The position numbers and the translations under genes were made by a program. Shown piece by piece: positions 4,935 through 53,391 of a stretch of DNA of 64,000 nucleotides. The notes beneath the pieces were generated by a model. That model had not been told where the DNA came from. It searched no databases and saw only the letters and a list, made by a program, of their open reading frames with translations. Source of the DNA: a virus (Duplodnaviria; Caudoviricetes); IMG/VR virus record IMGVR_UViG_3300033075_001536, positions 1 to 64,000 of that record; one strand, 5' to 3'. Within the stretch, counting starts at the first letter, position 1. Each line of letters opens with the position of its first letter.

Positions 4935-7541
4935 ATGTCAAAGATTAAGAAAGTATCAGAAGATTTAGACCTTATCTTAGAATCTATTCTCCAAATGGAT
5001 AGAAAGTTTAGACAAGTTATAGAGATATTAGTGAACAACTACGATCCAATAGCTACCAATTTATATAGATTATTCAATAAGGATATTAAAACAAATATTA
5101 ACTTCTTAAATCTTGGTCCTGCAAATGATGAGATATCCTTTGTAAATGATACACAAGTTGCTAGAATTCTAGATGCTGGTGGTGATCCATTTTCAAAATC
5201 GAGAAATGTTCAAAAAGTCGGAAGAGCGGTTCGTCAAGTTCTAACCTCTAACGGAATAGAAGTAACGGACAAACAAATTGAAGAGTTTGTAAATAGATAT
5301 AAAACAGAGTGGGACAAGCTTAATGCTCCAATTAATATAGATTTTGTCACAGGAAATGAGATTAAAAAGTGGTACTTGGATGTCAATTATGTTTCTGGAT
5401 CTGGTCAACTAAATAATTCTTGTATGAGATATCCAGCCACTCAGAACTATCTTGAAATCTATACCAGAAATCCGGAACAATGTCAACTGGTTATATTAAA
5501 GACTCCAGACAACACAAAACTTCTTGGTCGAGCTCTTCTCTGGAAATGCTCAGAAGATTCAACAACAGTAGCAAGAACTCCTCTTAAAGTAGATTATTAT
5601 TTAGATAGAATATACACTGTTTTTGACCATGATAGAGATAAGATTAAAGAATTTGTTAAAAACAAATTAAAGGATAAAAATGTTATTTGTCATATTGATG
5701 TCGTAAATGACTTTTCAAAACTTAATAGAATTAAAGTATCTCTTGAGAATGTAGAATTTGCGCAATACCCATACATAGATTCTCTTTACAATGTATATCC
5801 AAATGAGAAATTTATATCTGCTGTAGATGATGCTCGTTCACTAGTCTACCAGTGTCGTCAAACAAACGGTAATAAAATAGTTAGAAACTGGGTTCATTCT
5901 GTTAATCTAAACAGATATTTCCCAGCATCTGAAGTTATTATGGTAGATTCATTAAGATCGTACATGCCTTTATCTGAATGTCTTCAGGACTATCAAGGTA
6001 GATGGATTTATCGCGGAGATGCTATCCAATCCGAAATATACGGGGTAATTACCCGTAGAAATGCTCAACAAACTCGTTGGGGTTGGGTTCCGAACAATGA
6101 GTTGGTGACAGTCTATACCAACACTTCATCCACTGTTGCAATGCCTAGAAGACTTCTAAACATCGAATTCTTTGAATGTAGAAATAGAAATGGTTCTTCA
6201 TCTTTCGGAACAGAAGAAGCGTCTTTCTTGGATGTTACTGGTAAAAGATATCTTTTAGCTGACAAGAGACATTTAATTGCAAGTTCTGCTAACTGGGAAG
6301 GTTTAGTTAAGGCTGTTCGTATTATGTCAGAGGATGTTAAACCTCTTGGAAATGTTCATCCATCAAGTTATGCTCCAGGAGTTACTTACCAGTTATATTC
6401 TCTTCCAGACTCAACTCTTCCAATTGCTATTAAATATAACTATCCACCAACAGAAAGGTTAGTAGCAACATATTCATTCTCAACACCTGTTTCACCAACA
6501 GCTTCGGCTCCCTCAACAACTTCAGGAGTTATAGCTCTCGAAACAGATGTAAATGCATTTAGATTGAGAAAAAGGAGAGCAGCTCGTGGAACAAGATCAA
6601 CAGACATGTGGATCCTAAAGAAAGGATATGCTCTAGATTACTTCTTAAACCACCCAATCACAGATAAAGTTATTTCAGATACACTTACTCTAATAAAGGT
6701 TGCTGGTAACCAAGAAACAACTTCTGCTAAAATGCAATTGCTAGCTGATACCAACAACTACTTATATTCCCAATCAGCTCCTTACCAAAGGGCTCTTAAA
6801 GAAGCGGTTTTAAAATCTTCTACTAAAGAATCTCTTTACAAAGAAGTCAATAAGAATCTAGAGAACTTCTGGAGAACAAGGGATTCTAATATAAGAACTT
6901 ATATGTCAAATATGGTTCAACATTTGTCTGCTCAAAGAGGACAAACCGCTCCAACTCTTCTTGACCAAATGTTAGAAGATTTTAATGGTCGTGGTCCATT
7001 TGAAACAGAAAAGCCTTTGGAACTAAACGAGTTCAAGCAGTTTCTTTTAGAAGCTAGAGAAATGTTTATCTGTCAAATTTATATTTGGAGTCTAACTAGA
7101 AATAGAGTTCTAGCCGGAAGAACAGCAGCCAGACATTACGGGTTTTCTGATAGAAGAAGTGCTGCTTACCTATCATCTTGGAGCTACAATAGATACTCCG
7201 GTCAAGTTGGAGAAAGAGTTTTCCAAGTATGTGAATCTTTCTTCCCAAATTCTAGATTTCCAGTTGGAAATCCAATAGCTTCTATGAAGTGTGAAGCTGC
7301 TTATACATCTACTGATCTTTTAACTATCGATAAAAAGACAAATACTTATAAAGAACTTCTCAAAGCTTGGGATATGTTTGTTAAAGAAAACTTTTCAACT
7401 GTATTTCCTCCTCTAACGGTTCCACCAATTCCAGGTGAAAGACTTTCTAAACAAAGAGTTCGTAAATTTGGAGTTAAAAAGGAAGAGCCTCTTTCTCCAG
7501 AAGAAAGAGTTCACAAATACAATGAATTAAGTGATGATTAA
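4935..7541 (+). CDS. Large SCM-family phage protein (paralog 2)
   Basis: N-terminal third clearly similar to 2510..4900 (RLFNKDI, NSCMRYP, GRALLWK, YLDRIY, YPYIDS); AATATATA at 4920-4927. Confidence 0.75.
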   Translation: MSKIKKVSEDLDLILESILQMDRKFRQVIEILVNNYDPIATNLYRLFNKDIKTNINFLNLGPANDEISFVNDTQVARILDAGGDPFSKSRNVQKVGRAVRQVLTSNGIEVTDKQIEEFVNRYKTEWDKLNAPINIDFVTGNEIKKWYLDVNYVSGSGQLNNSCMRYPATQNYLEIYTRNPEQCQLVILKTPDNTKLLGRALLWKCSEDSTTVARTPLKVDYYLDRIYTVFDHDRDKIKEFVKNKLKDKNVICHIDVVNDFSKLNRIKVSLENVEFAQYPYIDSLYNVYPNEKFISAVDDARSLVYQCRQTNGNKIVRNWVHSVNLNRYFPASEVIMVDSLRSYMPLSECLQDYQGRWIYRGDAIQSEIYGVITRRNAQQTRWGWVPNNELVTVYTNTSSTVAMPRRLLNIEFFECRNRNGSSSFGTEEASFLDVTGKRYLLADKRHLIASSANWEGLVKAVRIMSEDVKPLGNVHPSSYAPGVTYQLYSLPDSTLPIAIKYNYPPTERLVATYSFSTPVSPTASAPSTTSGVIALETDVNAFRLRKRRAARGTRSTDMWILKKGYALDYFLNHPITDKVISDTLTLIKVAGNQETTSAKMQLLADTNNYLYSQSAPYQRALKEAVLKSSTKESLYKEVNKNLENFWRTRDSNIRTYMSNMVQHLSAQRGQTAPTLLDQMLEDFNGRGPFETEKPLELNEFKQFLLEAREMFICQIYIWSLTRNRVLAGRTAARHYGFSDRRSAAYLSSWSYNRYSGQVGERVFQVCESFFPNSRFPVGNPIASMKCEAAYTSTDLLTIDKKTNTYKELLKAWDMFVKENFSTVFPPLTVPPIPGERLSKQRVRKFGVKKEEPLSPEERVHKYNELSDD

Positions 7542-7912
7542 ATTTTCTTAATCACCAAATCTCGTCTCACAGATTTTAATTTTTGAAGTTTTTCTTCTAA
7601 ATCAATTCGATAAGGAATATTATAAACATACTTGACCTGTTCTTTTTGGTGTTCATTCTCTATATTCTGAACAATCTTATCAATTTGCTTTATAGTCAAT
7701 TCTTCTCTATGATACTTAAACCAATCATCCTTTATATAAGAAGGCATATTGATAATTTCATTTAACTTATCTTTTTCTTCTTTTAGATAGAAATATAAAC
7801 CACCATCCTCAATGATTAGTTCTTCTATTTTGGTAATTGGATCTACCAGTTTATAGTAATTTGGACCAACTGGATCGCCTACCCACCTTTCAAACCTGAA
7901 AACAATTTCCAT
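7538..7912 (-). CDS. Hypothetical protein with C-terminal RDxKL-like tail
   Basis: Ends VRRDLVIKKI; abuts the topoisomerase gene. Confidence 0.7.
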   Translation of the reverse strand: MEIVFRFERWVGDPVGPNYYKLVDPITKIEELIIEDGGLYFYLKEEKDKLNEIINMPSYIKDDWFKYHREELTIKQIDKIVQNIENEHQKEQVKYVYNIPYRIDLEEKLQKLKSVRRDLVIKKI

Positions 7913-9253
7913 TTATTTGAATTTCTTTTTTAGTTCGTTTAAATCTTCTAGATACATATCCTTTGGATCGACTTTTTTTAATTCTTCTATCTCATTTTTC
8001 TTAATTTGAAAATCTTCTTTTAACTTCTCATACACCTCTTTAGTTAAGGAGTAAATTGCCATTCGAAGTAGATAATCAAAATCACCATCTATTTTTTCTA
8101 ACTTTAACTCTTCAATTTGTTTAATAATATCCACCTTCGGAACATTATTCACTTTAATTTTACCATCTAAGATAGCCTTAATGAATCTACCACGATTAGA
8201 AAGAACTTTTAGCTCATGGTTAAGCTTATCGAGCTTATATTCTTTTCTTTTCGTATAGAACCCAAGTCTAAAAATAACAAAGTATCGAATGATATCAGAC
8301 ACGCTGGAGAATATTTTAAGTTTACCATTCTCATCTAAGGTAGTTAAATTTTCAGTCTCATATTCTTCTAACTTTAAAAGCTTCAAAATTTTCTGTTCAT
8401 CCAATTTTTCTAAATAAGCTCGACTAAATTTGATAATATACTCAATACCATTTTTACAATTATCTTCATACGAATTTATTTTTCCGTCTTCTACTAGTTT
8501 GTCTAGATGAGATTCAAAAGCTTTATAGGTTAGAGAAGGTGGAAGCTCAGTTATTTTGATAGTAGAGGTATTGGTTTTTTGAAACAATCCTCGTATGATC
8601 CACCGGTTTGGTAGCTCAGGATCCTTGGTATAGGTTCCATGAAATACATTACTCTTTGGTTTAAGGTCTTCAATAGTCTTATTGTTCAATAATTTAATAC
8701 ACGAATCAATAAGTTCTTTTGGATCTCGATTAAGGATATTGGAAGCAAATCCAACGGCAATTCCAGATCCTCCGTTTAACAAAACAGTTGGAATAATCGG
8801 TAGAAAAAATCTAGGTTCAATTGATTCACCCTCTTCCTCTTTATATTCAAGAAGCTCGAAGTCTTTATAGAGTTGATGGAAGTTATCGGATAACTTGGTT
8901 TCAATATATCTTGCTGATGCCGCTTCAGGCGATCGGAGAGATCCATACTGACCAAGGTCTTCTAATAGAGAAGCATTATTTTTAAATTTTTGAGCCATAT
9001 TCACAATAGCCGCATTAAGAGAAGCATCCCCGTGATGATAATAACATTCAGAAGCAACACGACCCGATAGTTGAAAAACCTTTAAGGACTTTTCATTACC
9101 AGTCTTCCATATTCTAGAAGCAACATGGATTACTTTTCTTTGGGTTGGTTTAAAAGAATCAATCACGGAAGGAATTGCTCTGCCTTCAAGAACATACATA
9201 GCAAACTCTTTATACTCGGTGGATAGGAAATCACTAATGGTTTTATTATTCAT
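7913..9253 (-). CDS. Type IIA DNA topoisomerase, T4 gp52-like (GyrA/ParC-type) subunit
   Basis: RAIPSVIDSFKPTQRK, YHHGDASL, catalytic AASARYI, NGGSGIAVGF; short T4-like length. Confidence 0.95.
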   Translation of the reverse strand: MNNKTISDFLSTEYKEFAMYVLEGRAIPSVIDSFKPTQRKVIHVASRIWKTGNEKSLKVFQLSGRVASECYYHHGDASLNAAIVNMAQKFKNNASLLEDLGQYGSLRSPEAASARYIETKLSDNFHQLYKDFELLEYKEEEGESIEPRFFLPIIPTVLLNGGSGIAVGFASNILNRDPKELIDSCIKLLNNKTIEDLKPKSNVFHGTYTKDPELPNRWIIRGLFQKTNTSTIKITELPPSLTYKAFESHLDKLVEDGKINSYEDNCKNGIEYIIKFSRAYLEKLDEQKILKLLKLEEYETENLTTLDENGKLKIFSSVSDIIRYFVIFRLGFYTKRKEYKLDKLNHELKVLSNRGRFIKAILDGKIKVNNVPKVDIIKQIEELKLEKIDGDFDYLLRMAIYSLTKEVYEKLKEDFQIKKNEIEELKKVDPKDMYLEDLNELKKKFK

Positions 9254-9280
9254 TATAATTTATATATAGATAAAATAGAA

Positions 9281-10213
9281 TTGTTCATTTTGAAATATTT
9301 ATTACCTTTTAATGAAAAAATGGGAATTAATCAGGATCTTGAAAACCAGGTAGATGATTTCTACAAAGAAATAAATTTACCCGAAAACAAAGATAAGAAT
9401 GAATTTGATTTTTTTTATCACTGTTCTAAAGGTAATATTGGTTTCAAATTAATTATCAATGATAAATTAAATAAAGGAGAATCTGGTAAACAAGGAGAGT
9501 TCTCACATAATCCAATTTTATTTAACGGATTTACTATATCACTTTTAAATAGAAGAGATAAAGATGTCCTTCTACATGAATTAAAACACCTTGATTATGT
9601 TTTTCAAAATAAAAGAGCAAATACTAATAAATTAATTAAAGGTGTTCAGAGATTTGATAAAAAAAGATCAGATGGAATACAACAAGCTTTATTTCTATGT
9701 TATGTTTTTGATACTGATGAATTTCAAGCTAAATACCATGGATACTATTCTTATATAGATTCTTATATTAAAAAGAACCTAACAGAAGAATTAAAAACAT
9801 CTGATGGTATTACTAAGCTGGTGAATGCTGCTTTAAAAGAAAATACCGACAAGACTTATACTTACTATCTAAATAAAGATGATTTCAAATTTTTTAACTA
9901 TGGTATATCTCAAGATGACTTGAATACTCTATTAGTTAAATATATAAGAGATAAAGACATATCTTCTATTTCAAACAATACTGGAAATATACTAAAAGAT
10001 GTTATCAATACCTATAAATGGGGAATTAAATATACTTGGAATGACATTAAACATAAAATAGGACTTATCACTAAATCAGAGCAAAAAGAAATTAATCTCT
10101 TAGTTAAAAAATTAGAAAAAGATATTAATTGGAAAAGAAAGAAATATAATCGAAAATTTAGAAGAATACTAACACTTATGCTGGATAAATATTTACCAAA
10201 TAAAACAAGATGA
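9281..10213 (+). CDS. Putative zincin metallopeptidase
   Basis: LLHELKHLD (HExxH) and downstream DEFQAKY; LKYLLPFNE N-terminal motif. Confidence 0.6.
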   Translation: MFILKYLLPFNEKMGINQDLENQVDDFYKEINLPENKDKNEFDFFYHCSKGNIGFKLIINDKLNKGESGKQGEFSHNPILFNGFTISLLNRRDKDVLLHELKHLDYVFQNKRANTNKLIKGVQRFDKKRSDGIQQALFLCYVFDTDEFQAKYHGYYSYIDSYIKKNLTEELKTSDGITKLVNAALKENTDKTYTYYLNKDDFKFFNYGISQDDLNTLLVKYIRDKDISSISNNTGNILKDVINTYKWGIKYTWNDIKHKIGLITKSEQKEINLLVKKLEKDINWKRKKYNRKFRRILTLMLDKYLPNKTR

Positions 10214-10311
10214 TAGACCAAGAAGAGCTTAGATATGAATATGTTTATGGAGATGTTATAGAAGAACCAAAATCCCTAATCAAAAAGTTCAAAGATTTTT
10301 TTAATAGATAG
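10210..10311 (+). CDS. 33-aa small protein, not in ORF track
   Basis: ATGA overlap with the upstream stop; MIDQEELRYEYVYGDVIEEPKSLIKKFKDFFNR*. Confidence 0.5.
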   Translation: MIDQEELRYEYVYGDVIEEPKSLIKKFKDFFNR

Positions 10312-10315
10312 ATAT

Positions 10316-10531
10316 ATGAAATACATACAAACAAATGAAGAGTTTATTGGAAAGGTAAAGAAGTTTTTTGGTATTAGTCCATCTACACTCAGAGACTACC
10401 AGGAACATTTTGATGGTATTATATTTGATGGAGAAACTAAATCGCTTACCGGAAAATGTAAAAAGTGTGGAGTCCGTGAGGATATTATAAAACACAAGTG
10501 TAAAGATGAAACATCTAAGGAGAATAAATGA
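10316..10531 (+). CDS. Small protein with CTS-like N-terminus and CxxC...HxC Zn motif
   Basis: MKYIQTNEEF; CKKC...HKC. Confidence 0.65.
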   Translation: MKYIQTNEEFIGKVKKFFGISPSTLRDYQEHFDGIIFDGETKSLTGKCKKCGVREDIIKHKCKDETSKENK

Positions 10532-10940: not shown

Positions 10941-10977
10941 TATTCTTCGAAAAATCTTAGTCTTTTATATCAAAAAG

Positions 10978-11005
10978 AAACAATAACTTAAATCTCTACT
11001 ATAAA
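10978..11005 (+). promoter_or_regulatory. AAAC-N18-TATAA putative middle promoter
   Basis: AAAC 10978-10981 and TATAAA from 11000; same spacing before several replication/metabolism genes. Confidence 0.5.
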
Positions 11006-11011
11006 TAAAGT

Positions 11012-12889: not shown

Positions 12890-13360
12890 GTGGAAAATTT
12901 AAAAACAAACGAAGAATTTCTAGATATCTTCAAAACTCCTAAACGGAAAATTGTTATCTACCCTGCTCAAATTCTTAGAACAAGATGTAAAGATGTTTCT
13001 GAATATCCGAAAGAACTAGTTGAAGATATGTGGAAAGTTTTAGCTCGTGGTGGGGTTGGTCTTGCTGCTCCACAGGTTGGAGAAGACTTAAATGTATTCT
13101 TAATTAGTTATGCCTTTAAAAGAAAAGTAGTTCTTAATCCTAAAATATTAAAATATGGTACAGAGACAAGTTCATATAGAGAAGGATGTCTAAGTATTCC
13201 AGGAAGAATGGTTAAAGTCTGGAGACCTAATTCAATAGATGTGGAATTTAGAGATGAGAAATTTGAATTAAAGAAAGCCACCATCTCAGGATTTATGGCT
13301 CGTATATTTCAACACGAATTTGATCACTTACAAGGAAAATTAATTATTGATTATGCTTAA
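12890..13360 (+). CDS. def: Peptide deformylase
   Basis: GVGLAAPQVG, EGCLSIP, QHEFDHLQG. Confidence 0.95.
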   Translation: MENLKTNEEFLDIFKTPKRKIVIYPAQILRTRCKDVSEYPKELVEDMWKVLARGGVGLAAPQVGEDLNVFLISYAFKRKVVLNPKILKYGTETSSYREGCLSIPGRMVKVWRPNSIDVEFRDEKFELKKATISGFMARIFQHEFDHLQGKLIIDYA

Positions 13361-13604
13361 AGTAGATGATCCAATTAAATATCGATTAGGTGATAGTAAA
13401 GAAGAGATTGAATTTTTTAAAAATAAATTCAAAGTAGATCCTCATCACATAAAGGGTAAAGTACTTAGTATAAGTAAAGATTACTATTTAATAGAATTGG
13501 ATATTGAGATATTTGGTGATAGAATCATTGGATTTTATGAAAGTGAAATAGAACTCGATGTGCAAAGGAAAAGAGAACAGACTTTAGAAGATATTTTTAG
13601 TTAA
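13347..13604 (+). CDS. Small hypothetical protein with RxxxL-type tail
   Basis: Ends QRKREQTLEDIFS. Confidence 0.65.
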   Translation: MIMLKVDDPIKYRLGDSKEEIEFFKNKFKVDPHHIKGKVLSISKDYYLIELDIEIFGDRIIGFYESEIELDVQRKREQTLEDIFS

Positions 13605-14256: not shown

Positions 14257-14754
14257 ATGAAGGGTCGTGCAAATAGGCGTTGGAGAGAAGAGGTGATTGT
14301 TAAGAAAAGACTTAAATCTCTTTCTTACCGTTCATCATGTTATAACTTTCATGATGGTAATGATGATCGTATAAGTTCACCAACTTGGAAAGATTTTATT
14401 GGGAGGATAGAAAGTTTCATGTTTAAAACTTATGTCACTCACAGATGGGATTCAAGACATAAAGTTAAATATTCAGGAAATAGAACAAAGGGATATTACA
14501 GAGACCCTGGTAAAAAGGGAACCAGAATTTATGATAAACAAAATCTTTTAAATATACTAGAAGAATATGGACTTAGAAGTGTTAATTCCGGACAATTCGG
14601 AAAAATGGATTATTCAGAGTGGTTATCTATTTGTGAACAAATATGCGAAGATCCCAATTTCTTTTATCAAGGAGAATGGGAAAGTGGTAATATTTCTGGA
14701 CAACAAGATCAGAAAGGAAGTGATCAAATTGATGAATCATCTCATTCAAAATAA
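14257..14754 (+). CDS. Basic hypothetical protein
   Basis: ORF preceded by AAAC-N18-TATAAC (14221-14248); its 3' part overlaps the next gene. Confidence 0.6.
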   Translation: MKGRANRRWREEVIVKKRLKSLSYRSSCYNFHDGNDDRISSPTWKDFIGRIESFMFKTYVTHRWDSRHKVKYSGNRTKGYYRDPGKKGTRIYDKQNLLNILEEYGLRSVNSGQFGKMDYSEWLSICEQICEDPNFFYQGEWESGNISGQQDQKGSDQIDESSHSK

Positions 14755-15103
14755 TATAGAATTCCTATGTTATTCACCCACCTTTTCAGGACCAAAGAAA
14801 TTTGATTTGGATGAGTTTAATGCAATAAATATTAAAAACTATTTACACGCGTATTCGCTAGATGGCTTCTATGATGGGTTTAATAAAATTGGATTTGATG
14901 TTTCTAAAGGTATTGTGGACTATTGTGTTGAATTTAATTGTTATCATTTGGTCCAACCTATTTTAGAGGATGTAAAAAAACATGTTCTTGGTCATCAAAT
15001 GGATTGGAGAACCAATCAAAAGATAATGAATGTGGAGAGGCAAGATATTCGAGATAGCTTTAACTCTCTTTACAGAGATATACAACTATCTAATATTTTA
15101 TAA
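14567..15103 (+). CDS. Hypothetical protein with RDxxL tail
   Basis: Ends LYRDIQLSNIL. Confidence 0.7.
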   Translation: MDLEVLIPDNSEKWIIQSGYLFVNKYAKIPISFIKENGKVVIFLDNKIRKEVIKLMNHLIQNNIEFLCYSPTFSGPKKFDLDEFNAINIKNYLHAYSLDGFYDGFNKIGFDVSKGIVDYCVEFNCYHLVQPILEDVKKHVLGHQMDWRTNQKIMNVERQDIRDSFNSLYRDIQLSNIL

Positions 15104-17352: not shown

Positions 17353-17949
17353 ATGGTTAGCAAGGTTCTAAACTTAGTTGCTTATGTACATATTCTGGTT
17401 CCACATCTTGAAAGAAGATTGAACCGGGTATGCTCTGGGTATTCTTGGCCAGCGTACTTTTCAACTGTTCAATTAGAAATAGATGATGAATTTAGCAAAT
17501 CTTATCTTTTAGAAAAGTCAAATAAGTACCTTGGATTTGACTTACTTGATATAGATTATGATCGTATCTATGAAATAGATATGACGGATACTTCTATGTT
17601 TTCAGAAAAGTCAGTTAATCCAAATCCAATTAAAGTAAAAGGTCTAAAAGAAATTACTGATTATTTTATAGAACTTGGTGTGTATGGTAAAATACATGAT
17701 ATTAGTTTTGTTGAACCAGAAACATTTTTTACCTTTAATGATAAAGAATCTGATTTACTTGAAATGCCATTTAGAACACATGGAGCAGATCCTTGGGTCA
17801 ATACCTCTATTAAAGAGTATTATGAAAAATACATTTGTAAAAGAACTTGGAAAAGGAACGACCATACTGCTGGTAATGGCACTTGGGAAAAGGAAGATAA
17901 ACTTCCACAAATTGAAAGAGATTTGAAATTGAGATCTATTTTAGGTTAG
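17353..17949 (+). CDS. Hypothetical protein with RDxKL tail
   Basis: Ends IERDLKLRSILG. Confidence 0.7.
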   Translation: MVSKVLNLVAYVHILVPHLERRLNRVCSGYSWPAYFSTVQLEIDDEFSKSYLLEKSNKYLGFDLLDIDYDRIYEIDMTDTSMFSEKSVNPNPIKVKGLKEITDYFIELGVYGKIHDISFVEPETFFTFNDKESDLLEMPFRTHGADPWVNTSIKEYYEKYICKRTWKRNDHTAGNGTWEKEDKLPQIERDLKLRSILG

Positions 17950-22801: not shown

Positions 22802-23228
22802 ATCTTTTACTAGAAAAATGTTAGATGAAAAGGATAAACTATTTAAAGAGATTCAAGATAAATATAAAGAGTCTCTAAAAGAATTTCTACATGAGATTAC
22901 AGATAAATTTACACCCACAAAATTTGAAATTGGACCATCATCAATCTTTAATATATGGTTCAAGGTTGATATAAAAGATGCAGATGAATTTTTTGAAGTC
23001 TTCCATGAAGATATATTTGATAGGATAAAAAGTGAGTATCCTGGATCAGTAACAAAGTTCAAAATTGGACTTAAAAGAAAATTTATGGAAGCTTATCCCT
23101 GGACATATTTTAGACACATTGGTGAACTAGTTGATTGTAATGATGAAGATATTCAAATGGTTTGTGATTATATTAAGGAAGATGGTGTTGATCGCTCACA
23201 CTTCATTATCTGTTTATTTATTTCCTAA
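22782..23228 (+). CDS. Hypothetical protein, paralog of 38678..39166
   Basis: MNLLLFES; [10 protein letters not shown] versus FHEGIFDRIK. Confidence 0.7.
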
Positions 23229-24264
23229 AACTCTTAGACTCTTTCAAGTCTTCAAAAATTTGTCTCTCTTCTTTAGTTAGGTTATTAGGTATCTGTACAT
23301 TTAATTTTATGTATAAATCACCCGTTCCATAATTCATATCTGGAACTCCTTTTCCACCCACACGAAGAATTTTACCATGGTTGGTTCCTGGTTCAATCTT
23401 ATAATTTATTCTACCAGTTGGTGCATCTAACTCAACATCAGTTCCTAGAATAGCATCCAAAACATTGATAGTCTTTTCGGTTACTAGATGGTTACCATCT
23501 CTTCTAAATACTGGGTCTGGAATTTCATCCACTACGATTAATAAATTTCCTGGATTTCCACCACGAATATAATTACCAGCACCTTCCATACTTAAAATAG
23601 TCCCATCATGAACACCTTGTGGAACATCAATATCAATGGTGTTTTCACTTACAAATATGCCTTCCCCATGACAAGACTTACATCTATTCATGATGTTTTT
23701 ACCAGTTCCGTTACAATTATGACACTGAGTAGCTTGTCTTATCTGTCCAAATGGTGTCTGTTGTGTCATAATTCTTTGACCAGTCCCCGCACAAGCGATA
23801 CAATCTCTTATATCCGTTCCGCCCTTTCCATCACAAGGTTTGCATTTATCGTGTCTTTTATATTTTAATTTTTTATTAACTCCGTTTAAAACATCTTGCA
23901 GATTAAGAGATATTCTTATTCTTACATCACTTCCCTTTGGAATAGAATTTCTTCTTGAACGAGACGATCCCATTCCACCAAATAGATCTCCGAAATGTGA
24001 AAATATATCTTCTGGATTAAATCCACTAGAATTAAACCCACCGAATTGTTGACCTGGGCCGGCCGATCCGTAATTATCATATTGCTGCTTTTTTTGAGGG
24101 TCTGAAAGTGTTTCATACGCCTCAGAAGCTTCTTTAAATTTAGCTTCATCACCACCTTTGTCTGGGTGATGTTTAAGTGCCATCTTTCGATATGCTTTTT
24201 TTATTTCTTCTGGAGTTGCTTCTTTCTTTACTCCTAAAACCTCATAATAATCTTTTTGTGTCAT
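23218..24264 (-). CDS. dnaJ: Chaperone DnaJ
   Basis: J-domain HPD, G/F region, four CxxCxGxG repeats. Confidence 0.97.
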
Positions 24265-24299: not shown

Positions 24300-24815
24300 T
24301 TAATAACGAAAAACTGTCTTACTTAATTCATATCTTAACATATCCGAAGGGTCAATTAAATCAGCTGGTTTTGTTTCTCCACGATGCCAGATGATTGGTT
24401 CTTGTGTCCCATTCTGATATAACTCAATGTGTAAAGTTGGTACTGAAACACCGTTCATTATTTGTTTAACTCCACCAATCAATTGTCCTTCTTTTATTGG
24501 TTTTCCGAATTTAATATTCTGATCAATTATAATTCCAGAATAATTAATAACACCAGAATTTCCTTCCAATAGAAGTGTATAAGTATTGTTGAACCATGAT
24601 GATCCAGCATTTTCACCAGTGGATATAAACATATCCACCACATCACTTTCCTCAATAGCAAAAATTTCCTGATTCTCTGCGCAATATAAATCTACTCCTG
24701 ATTGATGCTTTCCATCTTTTTGTGAAAACCCAAAACCAGCAGACGATTCAAATGAATATGGTAATCTATGTCTATATCTTTTTATTGGGAACATTATTTC
24801 CAAAATTGCCACCAA
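24300..24815 (-). CDS. M23-family peptidase-like protein, possibly degenerate
   Basis: HQSGVDL (HxxxD), GQLIG, TLHIEL (first His of HxH replaced), IDP. Confidence 0.65.
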   Translation of the reverse strand: MVAILEIMFPIKRYRHRLPYSFESSAGFGFSQKDGKHQSGVDLYCAENQEIFAIEESDVVDMFISTGENAGSSWFNNTYTLLLEGNSGVINYSGIIIDQNIKFGKPIKEGQLIGGVKQIMNGVSVPTLHIELYQNGTQEPIIWHRGETKPADLIDPSDMLRYELSKTVFRY

Positions 24816-25003
24816 GGCTTTAAAATTTTTTCCAATTTTTTATTTCTAATTGCCTTTGCACTATAAAGTTTTTCTATACAACTTTCACAAGTTTGTGGAT
24901 AATCATCACCAATAGTATCATTTATAGTATCCGCATCAAATGTGGTCAATCTACCACATTCCAAGCAACCACAAGTAATTGAGACATCATAGTAGTAACT
25001 CAT
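24794..25003 (-). CDS. Small Zn-ribbon protein with RNKKL tail
   Basis: CLEC...CESC; IRNKKLEKILKPWWQFWK. Confidence 0.65.
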   Translation of the reverse strand: MSYYYDVSITCGCLECGRLTTFDADTINDTIGDDYPQTCESCIEKLYSAKAIRNKKLEKILKPWWQFWK

Positions 25004-25254
25004 TTTAAAATTTCTTCCAATTTTTTATCACGAATGTAATCTTTGTGTTCATTCTTAATTTCAAGTTCTTGAAGTCCGAATGGTCCCATATAATTATACC
25101 TTGAATGACATCTGGTGCAGGTTATATTGACTGATCCACCACCTTCTGGACCTTCCCACCAATCAGTATCCTCACAATTCGGACACTTTAGACCATTGGA
25201 AGGTTCTTCTTTTTCTCTAAAGATTAAATTTTTTACTTTTTCAAATATACTCAT
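25000..25254 (-). CDS. Small Zn-ribbon protein with RDKKL tail
   Basis: CPNC...CTRC; IRDKKLEEILK. Confidence 0.7.
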   Translation of the reverse strand: MSIFEKVKNLIFREKEEPSNGLKCPNCEDTDWWEGPEGGGSVNITCTRCHSRYNYMGPFGLQELEIKNEHKDYIRDKKLEEILK

Positions 25255-25263: not shown

Positions 25264-25704
25264 TTATTGACCTAAAATAACCTTTGGATATCGAATTGGT
25301 TTTCCGTTTAATTTGTACCCTTTACTAACCATCTGAACTTTATCCTTGCCAATTGGTGCAACGGATATTACCTCATGTAAATCAGAATCATATACATCTG
25401 TTTGTATAGATTCGATGTTTTGTGATTTTAGGAAATTATCTACCTTTGATATAATTAGTCTAACTCCTTTTTTAGATTCTTCATCTTTTAAAGCAGATTC
25501 TGCAATATGTAAATCCGAATCAATATCCAAAATAGAGGATATCATTTTAGATTTTATAGAGTGTTCCAATTCTTGTTTTTCACGAACCATTCTTTTTTTA
25601 TAATTATCAAACTCAGCATAGAGTCTCAAATATTTCTCATTCCACTCTTGTTCAACTTGCTCAATTGTTTTTTCAACAACAACTTCTTGTTTTGTTTCTT
25701 CCAT
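25264..25704 (-). CDS. grpE: Nucleotide exchange factor GrpE
   Basis: YLRLYAEFDNYKKR, LHEVI, KGYKLNGKPIRYPKV. Confidence 0.92.
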   Translation of the reverse strand: MEETKQEVVVEKTIEQVEQEWNEKYLRLYAEFDNYKKRMVREKQELEHSIKSKMISSILDIDSDLHIAESALKDEESKKGVRLIISKVDNFLKSQNIESIQTDVYDSDLHEVISVAPIGKDKVQMVSKGYKLNGKPIRYPKVILGQ

Positions 25705-25908
25705 TTATTTAATTTTAATTATTGTATAAGCCATTCTCCAACCAACCAATATACACATCAATACTCCCCAAATTGTATATCCCCAAATAAAATTAGAAAT
25801 TTGAACAATCAATAAAGGAAGTCCAACTAGCATAATCATTAGTAAAAATCTATATGGTTCTGGAACATTATTGTACCATTCATTGGATTTTATTATAAAT
25901 TCTTTCAT
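25705..25908 (-). CDS. Small two-TM membrane protein
   Basis: Two hydrophobic segments; abuts grpE. Confidence 0.65.
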   Translation of the reverse strand: MKEFIIKSNEWYNNVPEPYRFLLMIMLVGLPLLIVQISNFIWGYTIWGVLMCILVGWRMAYTIIKIK

Positions 25909-26120
25909 TTTAAAATTTGTTTTAATTTTCTATCCCTCATTGTATTTAAATCTTCGAAGTGCTTTTTAAATATATCAATTTCTATTGGTGTATCACCTCC
26001 TTTAACTGTTTCTAACCAATAACAATTGGTCTCTTTTTCAAAATTTCCTTCATATAGTTTGTTTTCTTCAAAAAAAACCACATCAGCTAGAGATAATTTG
26101 GACTTACAAAAATATATCAT
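25905..26120 (-). CDS. Small protein with RDRKL tail (likely start MIYFCKSK)
   Basis: Ends MRDRKLKQILK; TAACTTTG element at 26130-26137 (minus). Confidence 0.65.
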   Translation of the reverse strand: MIYFCKSKLSLADVVFFEENKLYEGNFEKETNCYWLETVKGGDTPIEIDIFKKHFEDLNTMRDRKLKQILK

Positions 26121-26141
26121 ACTTAAACACAAAGTTAATAA

Positions 26142-37916: not shown

Positions 37917-38639
37917 CTATTTATTCAACACTTCTTTATTATAATACTCTTCAAATCCCTCCAACATATTTGAAACAGATGGTGATTTATCCAATCCGAT
38001 AATTTCATCCACTAATCCAAATTTCAAAGATTCATCAGAATTATACCAACGGTCTCTTCTTGAAAATTCAAGAACTTCATCAAATGTCTTTCCGCAATTT
38101 TTAGCTAAAATTTTAAATAAAATATAATTATACTTTTCTGCTTCCATTTGATTAATTCTGGTATCTTGGACATTTCCTTGAGTTCCATGACTTACCTGAT
38201 GTGTCATTACCTTTGAATAAACCAAGGAAGATCTTTTGCCTTTAGTTCCAGAGGATAACAATACAGATCCCATAGAAGCACACATACCGATATTGACGGT
38301 GGCTACATCCGAACTAATATAGTTCATAAGATCAACAATTCCTAGACCACACAAAACAGAACCACCTGGAGAGTTAATATAGAGAGTTATATCTTTCTTT
38401 TCCACATTATCTAAAAATAAAAGCTGCGCCTGAACAACATCTGACATATATTGATCAACAACTCCAGATACCCAAAGAATTCTATCTCTCATGAGTCGAG
38501 AAAAAATATCCATTTGTGTAACTCTCATTTCTCTTTCTTCGAGAATATAAGGTGTTAATGAGGTTTCAAATTGGTCTAATACGATTGAAGAAATTCCTTC
38601 ACTTTTTCCGAATTTTTTAAAATCTTGTCCTAAAGTCAT
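37917..38639 (-). CDS. clpP: Clp protease proteolytic subunit
   Basis: TPYILEER..QMDIFSRLMRDRI, YINSPGG, CASMG (Ser), THQ (His), RDRW. Confidence 0.95.
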   Translation of the reverse strand: MTLGQDFKKFGKSEGISSIVLDQFETSLTPYILEEREMRVTQMDIFSRLMRDRILWVSGVVDQYMSDVVQAQLLFLDNVEKKDITLYINSPGGSVLCGLGIVDLMNYISSDVATVNIGMCASMGSVLLSSGTKGKRSSLVYSKVMTHQVSHGTQGNVQDTRINQMEAEKYNYILFKILAKNCGKTFDEVLEFSRRDRWYNSDESLKFGLVDEIIGLDKSPSVSNMLEGFEEYYNKEVLNK

Positions 38640-48212: not shown

Positions 48213-48664
48213 AGATTTCTATCTCTATTTATCTGTTCAGACCTCACAATAGCAGTGTGTCCATAATATCCATTATGACAGTTATAAGCAGTAAATTGCA
48301 ATAATCCTTCAGATGTTTCTATGTTTACAAACATAGTTTCTCTTTCTTCAGGACCATCAGTTATCTCATCTAATCTACTAACATTTAAACACTCATCTAC
48401 AATTTTAACACCTATTAATTTTGACCCTATAAAAGATTTATATTCATCATTGGTGAAAAAATATCCAAATTTTTCACAACAGTTTTGATCATTTTCAATC
48501 AAAAGATATATGGTTTGTTTATTGGTGTGAATAGCAAATCCATCATAAGAAGACATACTACCTCTCAAATCTATCTCATCTCTTCCAAACAGCTCCTCTA
48601 TTTCTTCAATAATTTCATCAGAAGAGTTCTCAAATAGTTTAAATTTCTTGATAATTTTAGACAT
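48209..48664 (-). CDS. Conserved-type phage protein (QxCCE / HNGYY)
   Basis: QNCCE and HNGYYG motifs; KFKLFEN N-terminus. Confidence 0.7.
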   Translation of the reverse strand: MSKIIKKFKLFENSSDEIIEEIEELFGRDEIDLRGSMSSYDGFAIHTNKQTIYLLIENDQNCCEKFGYFFTNDEYKSFIGSKLIGVKIVDECLNVSRLDEITDGPEERETMFVNIETSEGLLQFTAYNCHNGYYGHTAIVRSEQINRDRNL

Positions 48665-48696
48665 AAACTATATATAAAAATATTTATATAATATTA

Positions 48697-49665
48697 ATGC
48701 TAACTGATTTAATCATTGATGGAAATTATATCTTATCTAAATCCGTTTTTGTTTTACATAAAAACAATTTGCTTTATGGTGCTCTACACAAAGCTTTAGA
48801 AAACACAGTGATGAATTATAGGAAATGGTATCCATTTCAAAATGTCTATTTGGTTTCTGATTCCAAGGAAAGATCATGGAGAAAAGATATTAATGAATTT
48901 TATAAAGCAAATAGAAAAAAGGATTCAGATATTGATTGGAACTTTGCCTATACAGCTTATGGTGAATTTAAACAAGGATTAAAGGGAATTAAAGTGTTGG
49001 AGCAGTCTTCTATTGAAGGAGATGATTGGATATCTTTCCTCATCAATAAATCGAATTCTAGTGGTCGTGGCACCATCACCGTATCCAATGATGGAGATAT
49101 TAAACAATTGGTTTCTTATTCACTGGATCCACTCTATATCAATATAATGACCAATGAAATGTATAATAAAGAGAAAGTATTTTTACCAACAAATTATCAG
49201 CTATTTTTAGATAAATTAAATAAGCTTCCAAATGATGACATTTTCTCTTTGAACAATCACTCTGAGTTCAATCAACTTTTTAACAATTTTTTAAATAAAT
49301 ACGAATCAGTTGAGGTAAATCCAGTGAAGTCTTTGGTGATTAAATTAATCTCTGGGGATATTTCTGATAATATAAAATCGGCATGGGTGGTTGAGAAAGA
49401 AGGCAAAACTAGAGGAATTGGACAAGCTGGTGCTGAATCAATTTATGAAAATTATTTAACCGAATTTGGAGAGATTAATTTATCAGATCCAGATGTTTTT
49501 GAAAATATAGCAGATCTAATTTGTGAAAAAAAGAAGTTATCAAAAACATTTATTTCAGAAATTGTAGAAAATATAAAATTTAATATGCGATTAATTGATT
49601 TAAGAATTGATCAGCTACCAAAAGAAATTGTAGAAAAAATGGAAGAAAAATATAAAATTAGTTAA
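48697..49665 (+). CDS. T4 RNase H-like 5'-3' exonuclease (FEN family)
   Basis: LIIDGN, SWRK, YKANR, EGDD, SNDGD, GDISDNI; AAAC-N18-TATAAT upstream. Confidence 0.88.
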   Translation: MLTDLIIDGNYILSKSVFVLHKNNLLYGALHKALENTVMNYRKWYPFQNVYLVSDSKERSWRKDINEFYKANRKKDSDIDWNFAYTAYGEFKQGLKGIKVLEQSSIEGDDWISFLINKSNSSGRGTITVSNDGDIKQLVSYSLDPLYINIMTNEMYNKEKVFLPTNYQLFLDKLNKLPNDDIFSLNNHSEFNQLFNNFLNKYESVEVNPVKSLVIKLISGDISDNIKSAWVVEKEGKTRGIGQAGAESIYENYLTEFGEINLSDPDVFENIADLICEKKKLSKTFISEIVENIKFNMRLIDLRIDQLPKEIVEKMEEKYKIS

Positions 49666-49670
49666 TAAAT

Positions 49671-49901
49671 ATGGAACATTATATCGCTTTTTATATAACA
49701 TTTATATTTTTTACATTTATTATTTTATTTGATTTATCACCAATTAATATTGTAAAATTTATTTGTAGAGATAAAAATACCACTTTTGGCATTTTGACTT
49801 TTGGTATCCATCAGTATAGAAAATATAAAGAGAAGAAACTTTCTGAAAGAAACACTTTACAATATATTAGGAATAAAAAATTAGAAAAAATTTTAAAATG
49901 A
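49671..49901 (+). CDS. Small membrane protein with RNKKL tail
   Basis: N-terminal TM; ends YIRNKKLEKILK. Confidence 0.65.
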   Translation: MEHYIAFYITFIFFTFIILFDLSPINIVKFICRDKNTTFGILTFGIHQYRKYKEKKLSERNTLQYIRNKKLEKILK

Positions 49902-50137
49902 AAGAAAATAATACAATTATTGCTATAAAAAATAGTATAGATTTTTATATGGATAGTGGAAAAAAGATTTTATATTATTATAAATATGATAATTTTAAAG
50001 TTATAAGGACATTTTTTGGAACAGATGAAATATCGATTTTTAACCCGATTTTAAATGAAAAAATATTTGTAGATAGTAAAGATTTTATAACCTTATTCGA
50101 ATATAGAGATCAAAAATTAGAAAATATTCTAAAATGA
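49898..50137 (+). CDS. Small protein with RDQKL tail
   Basis: Ends EYRDQKLENILK. Confidence 0.65.
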   Translation: MKENNTIIAIKNSIDFYMDSGKKILYYYKYDNFKVIRTFFGTDEISIFNPILNEKIFVDSKDFITLFEYRDQKLENILK

Positions 50138-50556
50138 AAAAAATAGATAATAATTTATTAGCAATTTCTAAAGCAATGTTGGTTGATAGAGATGACTGGC
50201 AATATGTTTCTGATGAACAAAAATCTACATTTTTCTTTATTACTTCTCGTTATTTAAGTAAGATATATCCAAAAGAATCTAAACTTTTGAATTCAAAATT
50301 AATAGATAAGGCTACAGGTATGGACATTTGGTTCCATTTTTTAAAAGATAAGCCTTATCCTAAATTGATGTGGTCTAAATCTGAAAAAGAAAAATCGGAA
50401 GATATTCCAGAAAAAGATTTCGAATTACTCTACGAAAAGCTTGGTCTAAATAAAAAAGAAGATCTAAATTTCCTAATAAATAGGTTTCCTGAATATATTG
50501 AAGAGGAATTGGATTATTATAAAAAACAATTAAAATCAAAAAAGAAAAATGGTTAA
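50134..50556 (+). CDS. Possible T4 gp62-like clamp-loader small subunit
   Basis: FFITSRYLS..YP...LLN...D...W.K loosely matches the gp62 F.INR.LS pattern; size fits. Confidence 0.35.
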   Translation: MKKIDNNLLAISKAMLVDRDDWQYVSDEQKSTFFFITSRYLSKIYPKESKLLNSKLIDKATGMDIWFHFLKDKPYPKLMWSKSEKEKSEDIPEKDFELLYEKLGLNKKEDLNFLINRFPEYIEEELDYYKKQLKSKKKNG

Positions 50557-51097
50557 AGAACAAAAAATGAGTTGGTATGTCATAAAGACACAATCAAACA
50601 AAGAAAGAAGTGTTGTAGAAAAATTAAACCTAGAAATGTCTAGAAGTAGTATTCAAGATAAGGTGGGTCGAATTGTCATTCCAACCGAAAAAGAGGTTCA
50701 GATTAAAGATGGTAAAAGAGTATTTAGAGAGAAAATTACCATGCCTGGATATGTTTTTATACAAACCGGTGCTATTGGTGAATTAACACATATCTTAAAA
50801 AATATAAACGGGACCTCTGGATTTTTAAGAACAAAGGATGGTAACCCACAAACGATGAAAGATATAGATGTTGCTAAAATGTTAAACGAGCAAGAATTAG
50901 TTGATTCTAAAGAGCTTAATTCTTCCTTCATTCTTAATGAAGAGGTTAAAATTATTGACGGGCCTTTTGCATCATTTAAAGGAAATGTTGAATTTGTGGA
51001 TAAAGATAGAAATAAAATAAGGGTCTCGGTTTCTATTTTTGGTAAAAAGACGATGCTTGATTTACACTTACTTCAAGTTGAGAAGGTAGAAAACTAA
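50549..51097 (+). CDS. nusG: Transcription elongation factor NusG
   Basis: WYVIKTQSNKE, MPGYVFI, KOW motif VKIIDGPFASFKG, VSIFGK. Confidence 0.93.
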   Translation: MVKEQKMSWYVIKTQSNKERSVVEKLNLEMSRSSIQDKVGRIVIPTEKEVQIKDGKRVFREKITMPGYVFIQTGAIGELTHILKNINGTSGFLRTKDGNPQTMKDIDVAKMLNEQELVDSKELNSSFILNEEVKIIDGPFASFKGNVEFVDKDRNKIRVSVSIFGKKTMLDLHLLQVEKVEN

Positions 51098-51098
51098 G

Positions 51099-51866
51099 AT
51101 GGCTAGATTTGGATCACTTATTGAAAAGGATAGGAAAATCTACGGAAATTGTCAAGTTTTATCACCTGATGGAATTCTTATGTTCAGATGTGATGATAAG
51201 AAATTAAATTGGTATCTAAAGAGAGATTTGGCCGAATTAGTGGAAGAGGATCCAAAAACAATTAAATTAAAATTTACTCCAAATGGTCTTGGTAATCATA
51301 ATAAGCAATATGGTCTCACCGTTATGGAAAACAAATGTGTTTGTTGTGGTGGTATAGAGTTTTTAACCCGTCACCATGTAGTGCCTTATTGTTATAGAAG
51401 ATATTTTCCAACCGAGATAAAATCACATAATTTTCACGATGTTTTATCACTTTGTGTGGATTGTCATGAGAAATATGAAGTATTCTCCTTTGAGAAAAAG
51501 AGAGAGCTAGCTAATATACACTCAGCCCCAATTAATGGGGATATTATTGATAATAAAGACATTATAAGGATGCGGAGAATTGCTTCTGGAATTTTATTTA
51601 ATTCTAATATCCCTGATAATAGAATTAGAGAAATGAAAAAAGAAATTAAAAATTTCCTTGGTTTGAAGAGATTATCTTTCAAAAAGATTAAACAATTATC
51701 TGATTTAGATATACCAATTTATAGTAAAACACATGGTGAAATGGTAGTTGCTAAGATTGAGAATCTACAAGAATTTATCCAAATGTGGAGAGAACATTTT
51801 ATAGAAAATTCAAATTGCAAATATTTACCAGATAACTGGAGCACAAAAAATGAATTTGGTAAATAA
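51099..51866 (+). CDS. HNH-type nuclease resembling the EXD2 C-terminal domain
   Basis: YGNCQVLSPDG...WYL, CVCCG, RHHVVPYCYR, HDVLSLCVDCHEKY, WREHF. Confidence 0.7.
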   Translation: MARFGSLIEKDRKIYGNCQVLSPDGILMFRCDDKKLNWYLKRDLAELVEEDPKTIKLKFTPNGLGNHNKQYGLTVMENKCVCCGGIEFLTRHHVVPYCYRRYFPTEIKSHNFHDVLSLCVDCHEKYEVFSFEKKRELANIHSAPINGDIIDNKDIIRMRRIASGILFNSNIPDNRIREMKKEIKNFLGLKRLSFKKIKQLSDLDIPIYSKTHGEMVVAKIENLQEFIQMWREHFIENSNCKYLPDNWSTKNEFGK

Positions 51867-52276
51867 TGGATGTTGATAAAGTTATAGAAATTTATAAAAA
51901 TTATAAACTAAGATGTTCCACTATCTTGGAAATGTCCAAATTGTACTATAAATATGAACAAAAATATATTCAAGACTCTCATCAAGAAATAAGAAAGGAG
52001 TTGGAGCTAAAATTTAAAGATGTTGATTTTAGAGAATTTACTAAAGAAACTTTAATAAAAGAATTTAATTTTGGACCATGGGATGACGATTTAGTGTTGT
52101 GTCCAATCTGGACAGATGGTTTAATAAAAGAGGGAACTGAGTTATATACCATTAGTGAAAATATGGTAATATATAAAAAGGGAGAGTTGAGTAATGACTC
52201 TAGATTTGGCTGCTTCTGTTACGGATTTAGAACATCTGATTTGAGGGACTACAAGTTAAAAAATTTAACAGAATAA
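51866..52276 (+). CDS. Hypothetical protein with RDYKL tail
   Basis: Ends DLRDYKLKNLTE. Confidence 0.7.
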   Translation: MDVDKVIEIYKNYKLRCSTILEMSKLYYKYEQKYIQDSHQEIRKELELKFKDVDFREFTKETLIKEFNFGPWDDDLVLCPIWTDGLIKEGTELYTISENMVIYKKGELSNDSRFGCFCYGFRTSDLRDYKLKNLTE

Positions 52277-52277
52277 T

Positions 52278-52745
52278 ATGCAATTAATAACAACAAAAAC
52301 AGTTTTGGCAATGGATATGGGAGTATCTAACAATTTATTCGGTGGAATAATGCTTTCATGGCTAGATCTTTCTGGAGCAGCCTATGCTGCCCAAGTTTGT
52401 GATTCACCTAGATTAGTTACTAAGAAATTTGAAGAAGTTGTATTCGAAAAACCTTGCAAAATCGGAAATCTAATTAAGATATATGGAACAGTTGTAAAAT
52501 TTGGAAACACCTCTATTACTATAAAATTAGAAGCTAGAAAACATAATGTAGAAACTGGATCGCAACAAATTGTTTGTACTACCAAAGTGGTTTTTGTAAA
52601 AATAAATGATGAGGGAGAGCCTGTTCCTATTTCAGATCGTGTAAAAGACCGATATAAAGAAAGAGTCAAAAAGTTCGGAAAAGGACTTCTTACACCAGAA
52701 GAGCTGGAATCTGAAATAAAATCAAAACTAGAAAAATCTTCATAA
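52278..52745 (+). CDS. Acyl-CoA thioesterase (hotdog fold, YciA-like)
   Basis: NLFGGIMLSWLD, F.KP..IG, GNTSI, VFVKI...G.P.P. Confidence 0.88.
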   Translation: MQLITTKTVLAMDMGVSNNLFGGIMLSWLDLSGAAYAAQVCDSPRLVTKKFEEVVFEKPCKIGNLIKIYGTVVKFGNTSITIKLEARKHNVETGSQQIVCTTKVVFVKINDEGEPVPISDRVKDRYKERVKKFGKGLLTPEELESEIKSKLEKSS

Positions 52746-52814
52746 GTAAAATAGTAAAAAATCGATTTTGGAATATAATATATATTATAATTAAAAAAAT
52801 AATTAGAAGCCAAA

Positions 52815-53219
52815 ATGAGCAATATTTACATTAAAATCGATTCAGCACAGTATTTAACATCTTCAGCAGGTCCATCATTGAGACACATTGCTGGGACAAT
52901 TTCCCTAACCTATTCTTACGCTAGAGTAAGAGGATCTGCGGACACTATCCTTTTAAAAGGAACTCAATCAACAGGCTCTGCAATGGTTTTTGAAGGAGCT
53001 AGCTCAACTGGGGCAACTGCTGATACATCATCTGCTGCGACATCAAGTTTATTTAGAAGTTTCTTTGTTGGAACTTGTTCGGCTACTTATAGTGGAAGTA
53101 CTGGTATTGGAGGTGGAACTAATTCACACGGACCACTCATCGCTGGTAATTATCCATTGACACTCTCATTTGCATCACATGGTAATGTGTCACCTGGTTA
53201 TATTTTAACAGTATCTTAA
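52815..53219 (+). CDS. Small S/G/T/A-rich putative virion protein
   Basis: Composition; stand-alone unit with AATATATA upstream and a strong terminator. Confidence 0.55.
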   Translation: MSNIYIKIDSAQYLTSSAGPSLRHIAGTISLTYSYARVRGSADTILLKGTQSTGSAMVFEGASSTGATADTSSAATSSLFRSFFVGTCSATYSGSTGIGGGTNSHGPLIAGNYPLTLSFASHGNVSPGYILTVS

Positions 53220-53247
53220 TTTTTATAAATTAAATTATTTTATATTT

Positions 53248-53287
53248 TTCACCAATTCCTGTAAAAAGAATTGGTGAATTTTTTTTT
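53248..53287 (+). terminator. Intrinsic terminator
   Basis: TTCACCAATTC / GAATTGGTGAA 11-bp stem followed by a T run. Confidence 0.8.
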
Positions 53288-53391
53288 ATTCTAATACATT
53301 CTCCAATTTTAAGTCTCTTAAAACTGATTTATTACTAATAACATCATTTATTTTCAAACTTACAATATGGACAAGTAAAATATCCCGGCAT
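53286..53391 (-). pseudogene. Remnant of a small Zn-ribbon gene with RDLKL tail
   Basis: MPGYFTCPYCKFENK* then, in a shifted frame, KINDVISNKSVLRDLKLENVLE*. Confidence 0.5.

Follow-up and report, generated by a model that had tools for sequence, protein, structure and literature searches.

A lineage-specific C-terminal peptide on unrelated small proteins of huge phages, a proposed docking helix

Why should some ten small proteins of different kinds, encoded in a single stretch of phage DNA, end in nearly the same ten residues? The stretch in question (the window) is the first 64 kb of the 170,678-bp IMG/VR virus record IMGVR_UViG_3300033075_001536, here termed G000, which is linear, about 78% complete by CheckV and 30% G+C. 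A preliminary description, made from the window alone, had listed tails of the form R(D/N)xKLxxIL and suggested that they might serve as a second address system, a Clp-type degron or a DNA module. We found that this C-terminal tag is carried by about 20 proteins in the whole record and by about 100-130 in each of two complete relatives, on bodies that are otherwise unrelated, and that its wording is uniform within a genome and different between lineages. We consider it moderately probable that the tail is a helix for addressing or docking, borne by non-late accessory proteins and recognised in trans by one partner per phage lineage.

The topoisomerase II and DnaK of G000 are 69-81% identical to their counterparts in LR756502 (642 kb) and LR745206 (635 kb), which are complete genomes of uncultured huge phages, and are more distant from those of LR756504, LR756501 and the Lak phages. 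We refer to G000, LR756502, LR745206 and LR756504 as the R-tag genomes; for comparison we used 400 kb of Lak-B1, with TAG translated as Q. The consensus in the window is [I/L/Y]-R-[D/N/E]-x-K-[L/I]-x-x-[I/L]-[L/I] followed by 0-8 residues, and it is found on nine intact genes and one broken gene. A six-frame scan for R-[D/N/E]-x-[K/Q/T]-L-x-x-[I/L/V] returned 10 sites in the window, with the stop codon 0-2 residues further on and, at one site, nine. Tagged proteins make up about one-twelfth of the proteins of G000 and about one-eighth of those of the complete relatives (8-13%). A position matrix trained on LR756502 alone and then applied to G000, in which matches ending no more than eight residues from the C-terminus count as terminal, gave 15 C-terminal and three internal matches (0.0 and 0.6 in shuffled proteins); the corresponding counts are 99 and 23 in LR745206 and 114 and 29 in LR756502. 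Counting gapped triplets without prior bias over the final 14 residues of proteins led to the same peptide: the most over-represented triplet is R...L..I in G000 (11 observed, 0.38 expected), R..KL in LR756502 (67 observed, 2.2 expected) and R..K...I in LR745206 (56 observed, 2.3 expected), and the same method found no comparable signal in Lak-B1. The genome-wide enrichment at C-termini that had been proposed as a check on the tag is thus borne out. The list of tails also holds in substance, the motif being present and more numerous than listed, although the ending at 7538 is not a member and that at 13347 is weak; the coordinates given for the tails are in fact gene starts or boundaries of neighbouring genes.

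When the tails are aligned on the arginine (position 0), information content stays at background until about five residues ahead of it. The residue at position -1 is hydrophobic, and the arginine is followed by D/E/N at position 1, K at 3, I/L at 4, N/D/E at 5, I/L/V at 7, L/I at 8 and a G/D/N/K cap at 9; a sub-variant ends in K-L-x-x-L-G-I. The distance from tag to stop ranges from 0 to 8 residues, one being the commonest; of the ten window tails, eight stop 0-2 residues past the motif.

The bodies that carry the tag are unrelated to one another. Trimmed of their tails, the G000 carriers have no significant all-against-all BLAST similarity, and the 96 carriers of LR756502 fall into 92 BLAST clusters, with Pfam matches in four of 95 (riboflavin kinase, DUF6011, DUF2158 and a zinc ribbon). 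We therefore rejected a hidden family of paralogues sharing a C-terminal domain, as there is no similarity past the tail and information falls off five residues before the arginine. The 136-residue carrier at 51866-52276 belongs to a widespread phage family, PHROG 6726, with the motif D-x-D-x-R-F-G-C-x-A-Y-G. Among 132 representative clusters of this family, about 100 end 2-10 residues past RFGCxAYG[F/I] and are untagged, and in 28 this motif is directly followed by x-x-S-[Q/E]-L-R-D-x-K-[L/I]-x-x-[I/L]-[L/I]. On 34 viral contigs with an untagged member, one of 1121 neighbouring open reading frames (ORFs) scores as tagged; beside tagged members, four of 75 do, or two of 50 without a duplicate locus. 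The neighbour counts and the untagged clusters therefore indicate that tag status belongs to the genome and does not follow the protein family. An AlphaFold2 model of the carrier, built from 85 sequences (pLDDT 95.8), predicts a helix at residues 127-135, the tail, with a tail pLDDT above 90; no similar solved structure was found among PDB folds. As a short C-terminal helical module on diverse proteins the tag would resemble the SHOCT domain (PF09851), but that domain has about 28 residues against about 10 for the tag, and PF09851 had no match in 18 G000 proteins (17 carriers and a helicase with an internal copy) or in the 95 LR756502 carriers.

As judged from codon choice, selection acts on the tail as a peptide. 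The codons of the invariant arginine (AGA, AGG, CGT and CGA) and of the aspartate occur in their genome-wide proportions (P = 0.25-0.93), and two identical 11-residue tails, IRNKKLEKILK, encoded on opposite strands (arginine codons at 24847 on the minus and 49869 on the plus strand), differ at three synonymous sites. Thus, the comparison of DNA with amino-acid conservation that had been put forward as a check shows conserved amino acids with codons at genome-wide usage, and it leaves the suggested DNA module promoting gene shuffling unsupported. Between LR756502 and LR745206, 27 orthologue pairs are more similar over the ten tag residues (64% identity) than over the whole protein (43%), and the tail is retained in orthologues that are only 24-31% identical; the 13 pairs classed as discordant mostly involve the L-G-I sub-variant. 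Carriers have reciprocal best hits less often than genes in general (29% vs 43%); they turn over fast.

The wording of the tag changes between lineages. More than 130 small proteins of LR756504 end in R-K-x-[K/R/I]-I-x-x-L-[L/I/N] (triplet R...I..L, 109 observed vs 1.9 expected), and position 1 is occupied by D/N/E in 78-89% of the G000, LR756502 and LR745206 tails but by K in 56% of 164 LR756504 tails. LR756501 (735 kb) has no R-type tag; 40 of its proteins end in DPYGEExW-[D/N/S]-x (loci L111-L147, e.g. 500330-503452 and 552409-555773). Neither tag was described in the literature searched, and a K-[Y/W]-R-S-I-D-[D/E] tag is absent from these genomes. Several of the 40 DPYGEExW proteins are copied pieces of the major capsid protein, prohead protease or tail sheath, and one capsid segment (FVPY...FAPRMLLRSRY) forms the body of an R-tagged mini-gene in LR756502 and of a DPYGEExW-tagged one in LR756501. 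The body of a tagged 71-residue protein at 320919-321134 of LR756502 (L019:919-1131) copies the UVR/M-domain segment of that phage's ClpC-like unfoldase, with 34% identity over 53 residues. An internal tag-like stretch, RRENKLGRLL, lies at residue 245 of an XPD/DinG-like helicase of G000 (133288-134955, minus strand; L108:9288-10955) and is conserved in LR756502 and LR745206; the orthologues in LR756504 and LR756501, examined for a lineage switch, have no tag at this site.

These genomes also carry a capsid-targeting-like tag at the N-terminus (MKYLKKFNE-like), and we found that the two tags mark different genes. LR756502 has 100 N-tagged and 130 C-tagged proteins, and one protein carries both tags where 13.2 would be expected (P = 8e-6); in LR745206 the figures are one and 11.1. 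The motif AATATATA, scored within 50 nucleotides upstream of genes, precedes 52% of N-tagged, 18% of other and 1% of C-tagged genes in LR756502; the percentages are 46, 17 and 1 in LR745206 and 41, 30 and 6 in G000, and the tagged genes of LR756504 are likewise depleted (2% vs 12%, P = 6e-6). Because the capsid, prohead-protease and sheath genes of LR756502 have a near variant of the motif, with an ATATATA core, upstream of them, AATATATA is probably a late-promoter analogue. The preliminary description was therefore right on two counts, that carriers have no N-terminal capsid-targeting-like motif (none does in G000, and the tags exclude each other in the relatives) and that they generally lack AATATATA. 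Judged by tag distribution and upstream sequence, the C-tagged genes are a class distinct from the late, N-terminally tagged class. Across the window, no upstream 8-mer occurs more often than (T)TAATATATA(A), which lies 12-35 nucleotides ahead of many start codons; it precedes half of the N-tagged genes and is probably the late promoter of the clade.

How might such a tail work? In the mechanism we propose, the peptide would form a helix of about three turns, followed by a capping residue, with the conserved R, K, L/I, I/L and L on one face. The clade would add this helix to the C-terminus of small, fast-evolving, non-late accessory proteins, and one common partner in each phage lineage would read it in trans. 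We infer a single reader per lineage mainly because the tag is uniform within a genome and concertedly different between genomes. The second address system of the preliminary description is thus favoured, if indirectly, by the unrelated bodies, the selection on the peptide, its uniformity within and variation between lineages, and the exclusion of the N-terminal tag.

As to the identity of the reader, 54 G000 proteins are conserved in all four R-tag genomes, and seven of these have no BLAST hit in LR756501: GrpE, ClpP, a 162-residue HAD-like protein (91491-91979), a NUDIX protein, a methyltransferase-like protein and two proteins without matches (71 and 218 residues). ClpP was rejected as a profile-specific reader since it is also present in the tag-less Lak-B1, GrpE since the tagged insertions around it vary and show no specific link to it, and the 162-residue protein since it looks like an N-tagged HAD-type enzyme. 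The last of these (plus strand; L106:7491-7979) has the motifs LDxHGV, ILTG and HIDDT, from which the HAD-type assignment is suggested; sequence identity ranges from 57 to 86% over more than 400 metagenomic clusters, and the protein has no Pfam family.

The phage Clp machinery, a ClpC-like unfoldase with ClpP, is nevertheless the leading, if weakly supported, candidate reader. The ClpP of the window (37917..38639, minus strand) aligns its Ser-His-Asp triad to those of solved ClpPs (E = 8e-45 to 1y7o). Over the PF00574 cut-off, ClpP is present in one copy in G000, three in LR756502, two in LR745206, three in LR756504, none in LR756501, two in Lak-B1 and one in LR756508, where one of the LR756504 and one of the Lak-B1 matches contain an in-frame stop. 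The VGF loop of the ClpC and ClpX families docks on ClpP. The unfoldase of the R-tag genomes is a two-ring, ClpC-like AAA+ protein with a UVR motif and a G-V-G-F type loop and without a Clp_N domain, whereas that of LR756501 has Clp_N and no such loop. In a Clp version of the mechanism the tag would serve either as a degron through which early proteins are cleared or as a tether, the small proteins delivering to the protease the targets they have bound.

Several observations weigh against a docking helix with one reader, or against its Clp version. The phylogenetic profile across the R-tag genomes and LR756501 singled out no reader, and no Clp unfoldase is present in the available 78% of G000. 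The Clp link depends on a single phylogenetic split, and the candidacy is weakened because Lak-B1 has two ClpP genes and no C-terminal tag, and LR756501 has a tag and no ClpP; the Clp-degron option of the preliminary description is therefore weakly supported, by the ClpP and ClpC-like unfoldase that R-tag genomes encode, their co-occurrence with a tag being imperfect. About one-fifth of strong matches are internal, and a strictly terminal degron would not need such copies. The switch from D-type to K-type tags is shown at the level of genomes and not of single proteins, because there are almost no tagged orthologues between the two lineages. Finally, the tail helix of 51866-52276 may pack on its own domain instead of being free, given its pLDDT of above 90 in the one good model.

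Among the rival explanations, a pure degron, by which early proteins would be timed for destruction by the phage ClpC-like/ClpP pair or a host protease so that early functions are shut off, accords with the non-late class of the tagged genes, with the one to three ClpP copies and the loop-bearing unfoldase of the R-tag genomes, with the catalytic triad of the window ClpP and with a tag at or near the C-terminus. A likeness also exists to the recognition signals and adaptor tethers of Clp AAA+ proteases (ssrA, the MuA C-terminus and the ClpX-binding tail of SspB), each a short peptide at or near the C-terminus by which unrelated proteins meet one machine, and these phages encode ClpP and a ClpC-like unfoldase. 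The sequences differ, however, and the present tag sits on more than 10% of the proteome. ClpX degrons of the ssrA and MuA type occupy the extreme C-terminus (LAA-COOH, RRKKAI-COOH) and require a free carboxylate; the tag ends 0-8 residues before the stop, with about 20% of copies internal, and we rejected such a degron on this ground. Together with the broken co-occurrence in Lak-B1 and LR756501, this makes a pure degron unlikely. We regard as decidedly unlikely a generic cis-acting end helix, without any common reader, that would make small, fast-evolving proteins more stable or soluble or let them oligomerise. The carriers are indeed small orphan proteins, and the one modelled carrier has a confidently predicted helix contiguous with its fold; yet the same R, D and K recur on unrelated folds (zinc ribbons, a protein with a hydrophobic segment, riboflavin kinase and the RFGxxAYGF family), about 100 clusters of the last family fold without a tail, and a single variant is common to more than 100 proteins of a genome and a different one to those of a sister genome, a uniform code that a cis helix, though conceivable for single proteins, leaves unexplained. 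A second capsid-targeting signal, loading small proteins into the head as the N-terminal tag may do, seems very unlikely. Mini-genes made of capsid-protein, prohead-protease and sheath pieces do carry tags, and exclusion of the N-terminal tag is what redundant signals would show. The T4 capsid-targeting sequence is likewise a short shared peptide addressing unrelated phage proteins, and it has a look-alike in the N-terminal tag of these same genomes. The T4 sequence, however, is N-terminal, belongs to late proteins and is cut by the prohead protease within the head, whereas the present tag is C-terminal, lies on non-late genes and excludes the N-terminal one. The promoter-like motif found ahead of the capsid, protease and sheath genes, and of half of the N-tagged ones, is almost always missing upstream of the C-tagged genes (1% vs 52% for AATATATA), so the products of the C-tagged genes are probably made at another time than the head, and a T4-type sequence was rejected.

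Three further explanations have very little probability. A motif binding a clamp or replisome hub, of the PIP-box type, would fit the spacing of [D/N]-x-K-[L/I]-x-x-[I/L]-[L/I] and its C-terminal position; the PIP-box pattern is Q-x-x-[L/I/M]-x-x-[F/Y]-[F/Y], with the same hydrophobic spacing, and the clamp-binding tails of T4 and RB69 (gp43, gp33 and gp55) are, like PIP boxes, C-terminal docking peptides on unrelated proteins. The XPD-like helicase with its internal copy conserved in three genomes points the same way. The tag, however, has D/N/E or K at position 1 and is never Q-dominated, has I/L/V and L/I with almost no aromatics at positions 7-8, and has an invariant R and K that lack a PIP-box counterpart, and we rejected a PIP box accordingly. 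DNA polymerase B (137865-139361) and topoisomerase II have no tag at their ends, a gp45-type clamp (PF09116) was not found in the 78%-complete record of G000, and some 100 orphan carriers far exceed a replisome client list; clamp binding is thus extremely unlikely. So is a membrane-targeting amphipathic helix like those at the C-termini of MinD and FtsA: the tail would be a short C-terminal helix of basic and hydrophobic residues, more basic still in LR756504, but on a helical wheel drawn from the consensus the R and K would fall within the hydrophobic arc and not flank it, acidic or amide residues are conserved at positions 1 and 5, and the DPYGEExW of the sister lineage is acidic. Hardly credible is a feature of the nucleic acid or of translation, be it a recombination module, a context for a downstream start site or coupling of termination to reinitiation. 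Seven of the roughly 20 G000 carriers overlap the next gene by ATGA or 8 nucleotides and A/T-rich codons are in mild excess at the last positions, but at least six carriers have a long gap or a convergently oriented gene downstream, internal copies of the tag exist, and the codon usage and synonymous differences described above tell against it.

Of wider consequence is that huge phages have mainly small orphan genes whose roles are unknown, and a tag on 8-13% of proteins would sort them into one class, non-late and with a putative common reader. The tag peptide is a direct experimental handle, as bait for finding that reader, and the lineage variants (D-type, K-type and DPYGEExW) offer a natural test of tag-reader co-evolution. 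Should that reader prove to be a protease or chaperone system encoded by the phage itself, it would reveal how a phage of such size times or steers a hundred accessory proteins. A bolder extension of the docking reading, which we hold to be quite improbable, is that the tagged proteins amount to a phage-encoded library of some 100 adaptors, each body binding a different host or phage protein and the tail tethering that target to one phage machine, for example the ClpC-like/ClpP protease. If true, viruses would here possess a system for targeted proteolysis whose code is specific to each lineage, its targets destroyed or relocated, and the bodies would include copied pieces of the capsid protein, protease, sheath and unfoldase of the same phage.

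Within the window, the plus-strand carriers begin with an 85-residue ORF at 13347..13604 (ending KREQTLEDIFS; arginine codon at 13572; matrix score 13.4), a weak variant with E at position 1, T at 3 and F at 8; the next gene is convergent, so there is no translational coupling. It is followed by ORFs of 178 residues at 14567..15103 (YRDIQLSNIL-stop; arginine codon 15074; score 16.7) and 198 residues at 17353..17949 (ERDLKLRSILG-stop; 17917; 19.5), neither with a Pfam or PHROG match. Further along the same strand are a 76-residue ORF with a hydrophobic N-terminal segment at 49671..49901 (IRNKKLEKILK-stop; 49869; 22.3), a 79-residue ORF at 49898..50137 (YRDQKLENILK-stop; 50105; 20.0) and the PHROG 6726 protein, whose gene (51866..52276) ends LRDYKLKNLTE-stop (arginine codon at 52244). 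The claim that carriers include zinc ribbons and a membrane protein therefore holds for the ribbons described below and for one protein with a hydrophobic N-terminal segment. The 124-residue non-member (7538..7912, minus strand) ends RRDLVIKKI, scores under the listing threshold and has an LR756502 orthologue with a different ending, KRNLIIKKII.

A tagged remnant on the minus strand (53286..53393) ends LRDLKLENVLE-stop (arginine codon 53318; score 19.7). At 53286-53750 (minus strand), ORF 53394-53750 stops at a TAA, the next 35 in-frame codons end with a perfect tag, and a short out-of-frame start (MPGYFTCPYCKFENK) lies between the ORF and the remnant; the locus is a decayed tagged zinc-ribbon gene, and the earlier view of this tail as a remnant proves correct, with a broken small gene behind an in-frame TAA. 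The other minus-strand carriers are a 69-residue zinc-ribbon-like ORF at 24794..25003 (IRNKKLEKILK, then PWWQFWK; arginine codon 24847; score 22.3), whose LR745206 orthologue also ends WWQFWK, an 84-residue zinc-ribbon ORF at 25000..25254 (IRDKKLEEILK-stop; codon CGT at 25032; 23.5) and an ORF of 71-75 residues at 25905..26132 (MRDRKLKQILK-stop; 25937; 20.7). The phage encodes its own DnaJ, GrpE and DnaK (the last at 61094-62992, minus strand). Tagged small genes are inserted between DnaJ (23218-24264, minus strand) and GrpE (25264-25704, minus strand); the order DnaJ, GrpE and a 161-residue gene is common to LR756502 and LR745206, and the small tagged insertions differ among the relatives.

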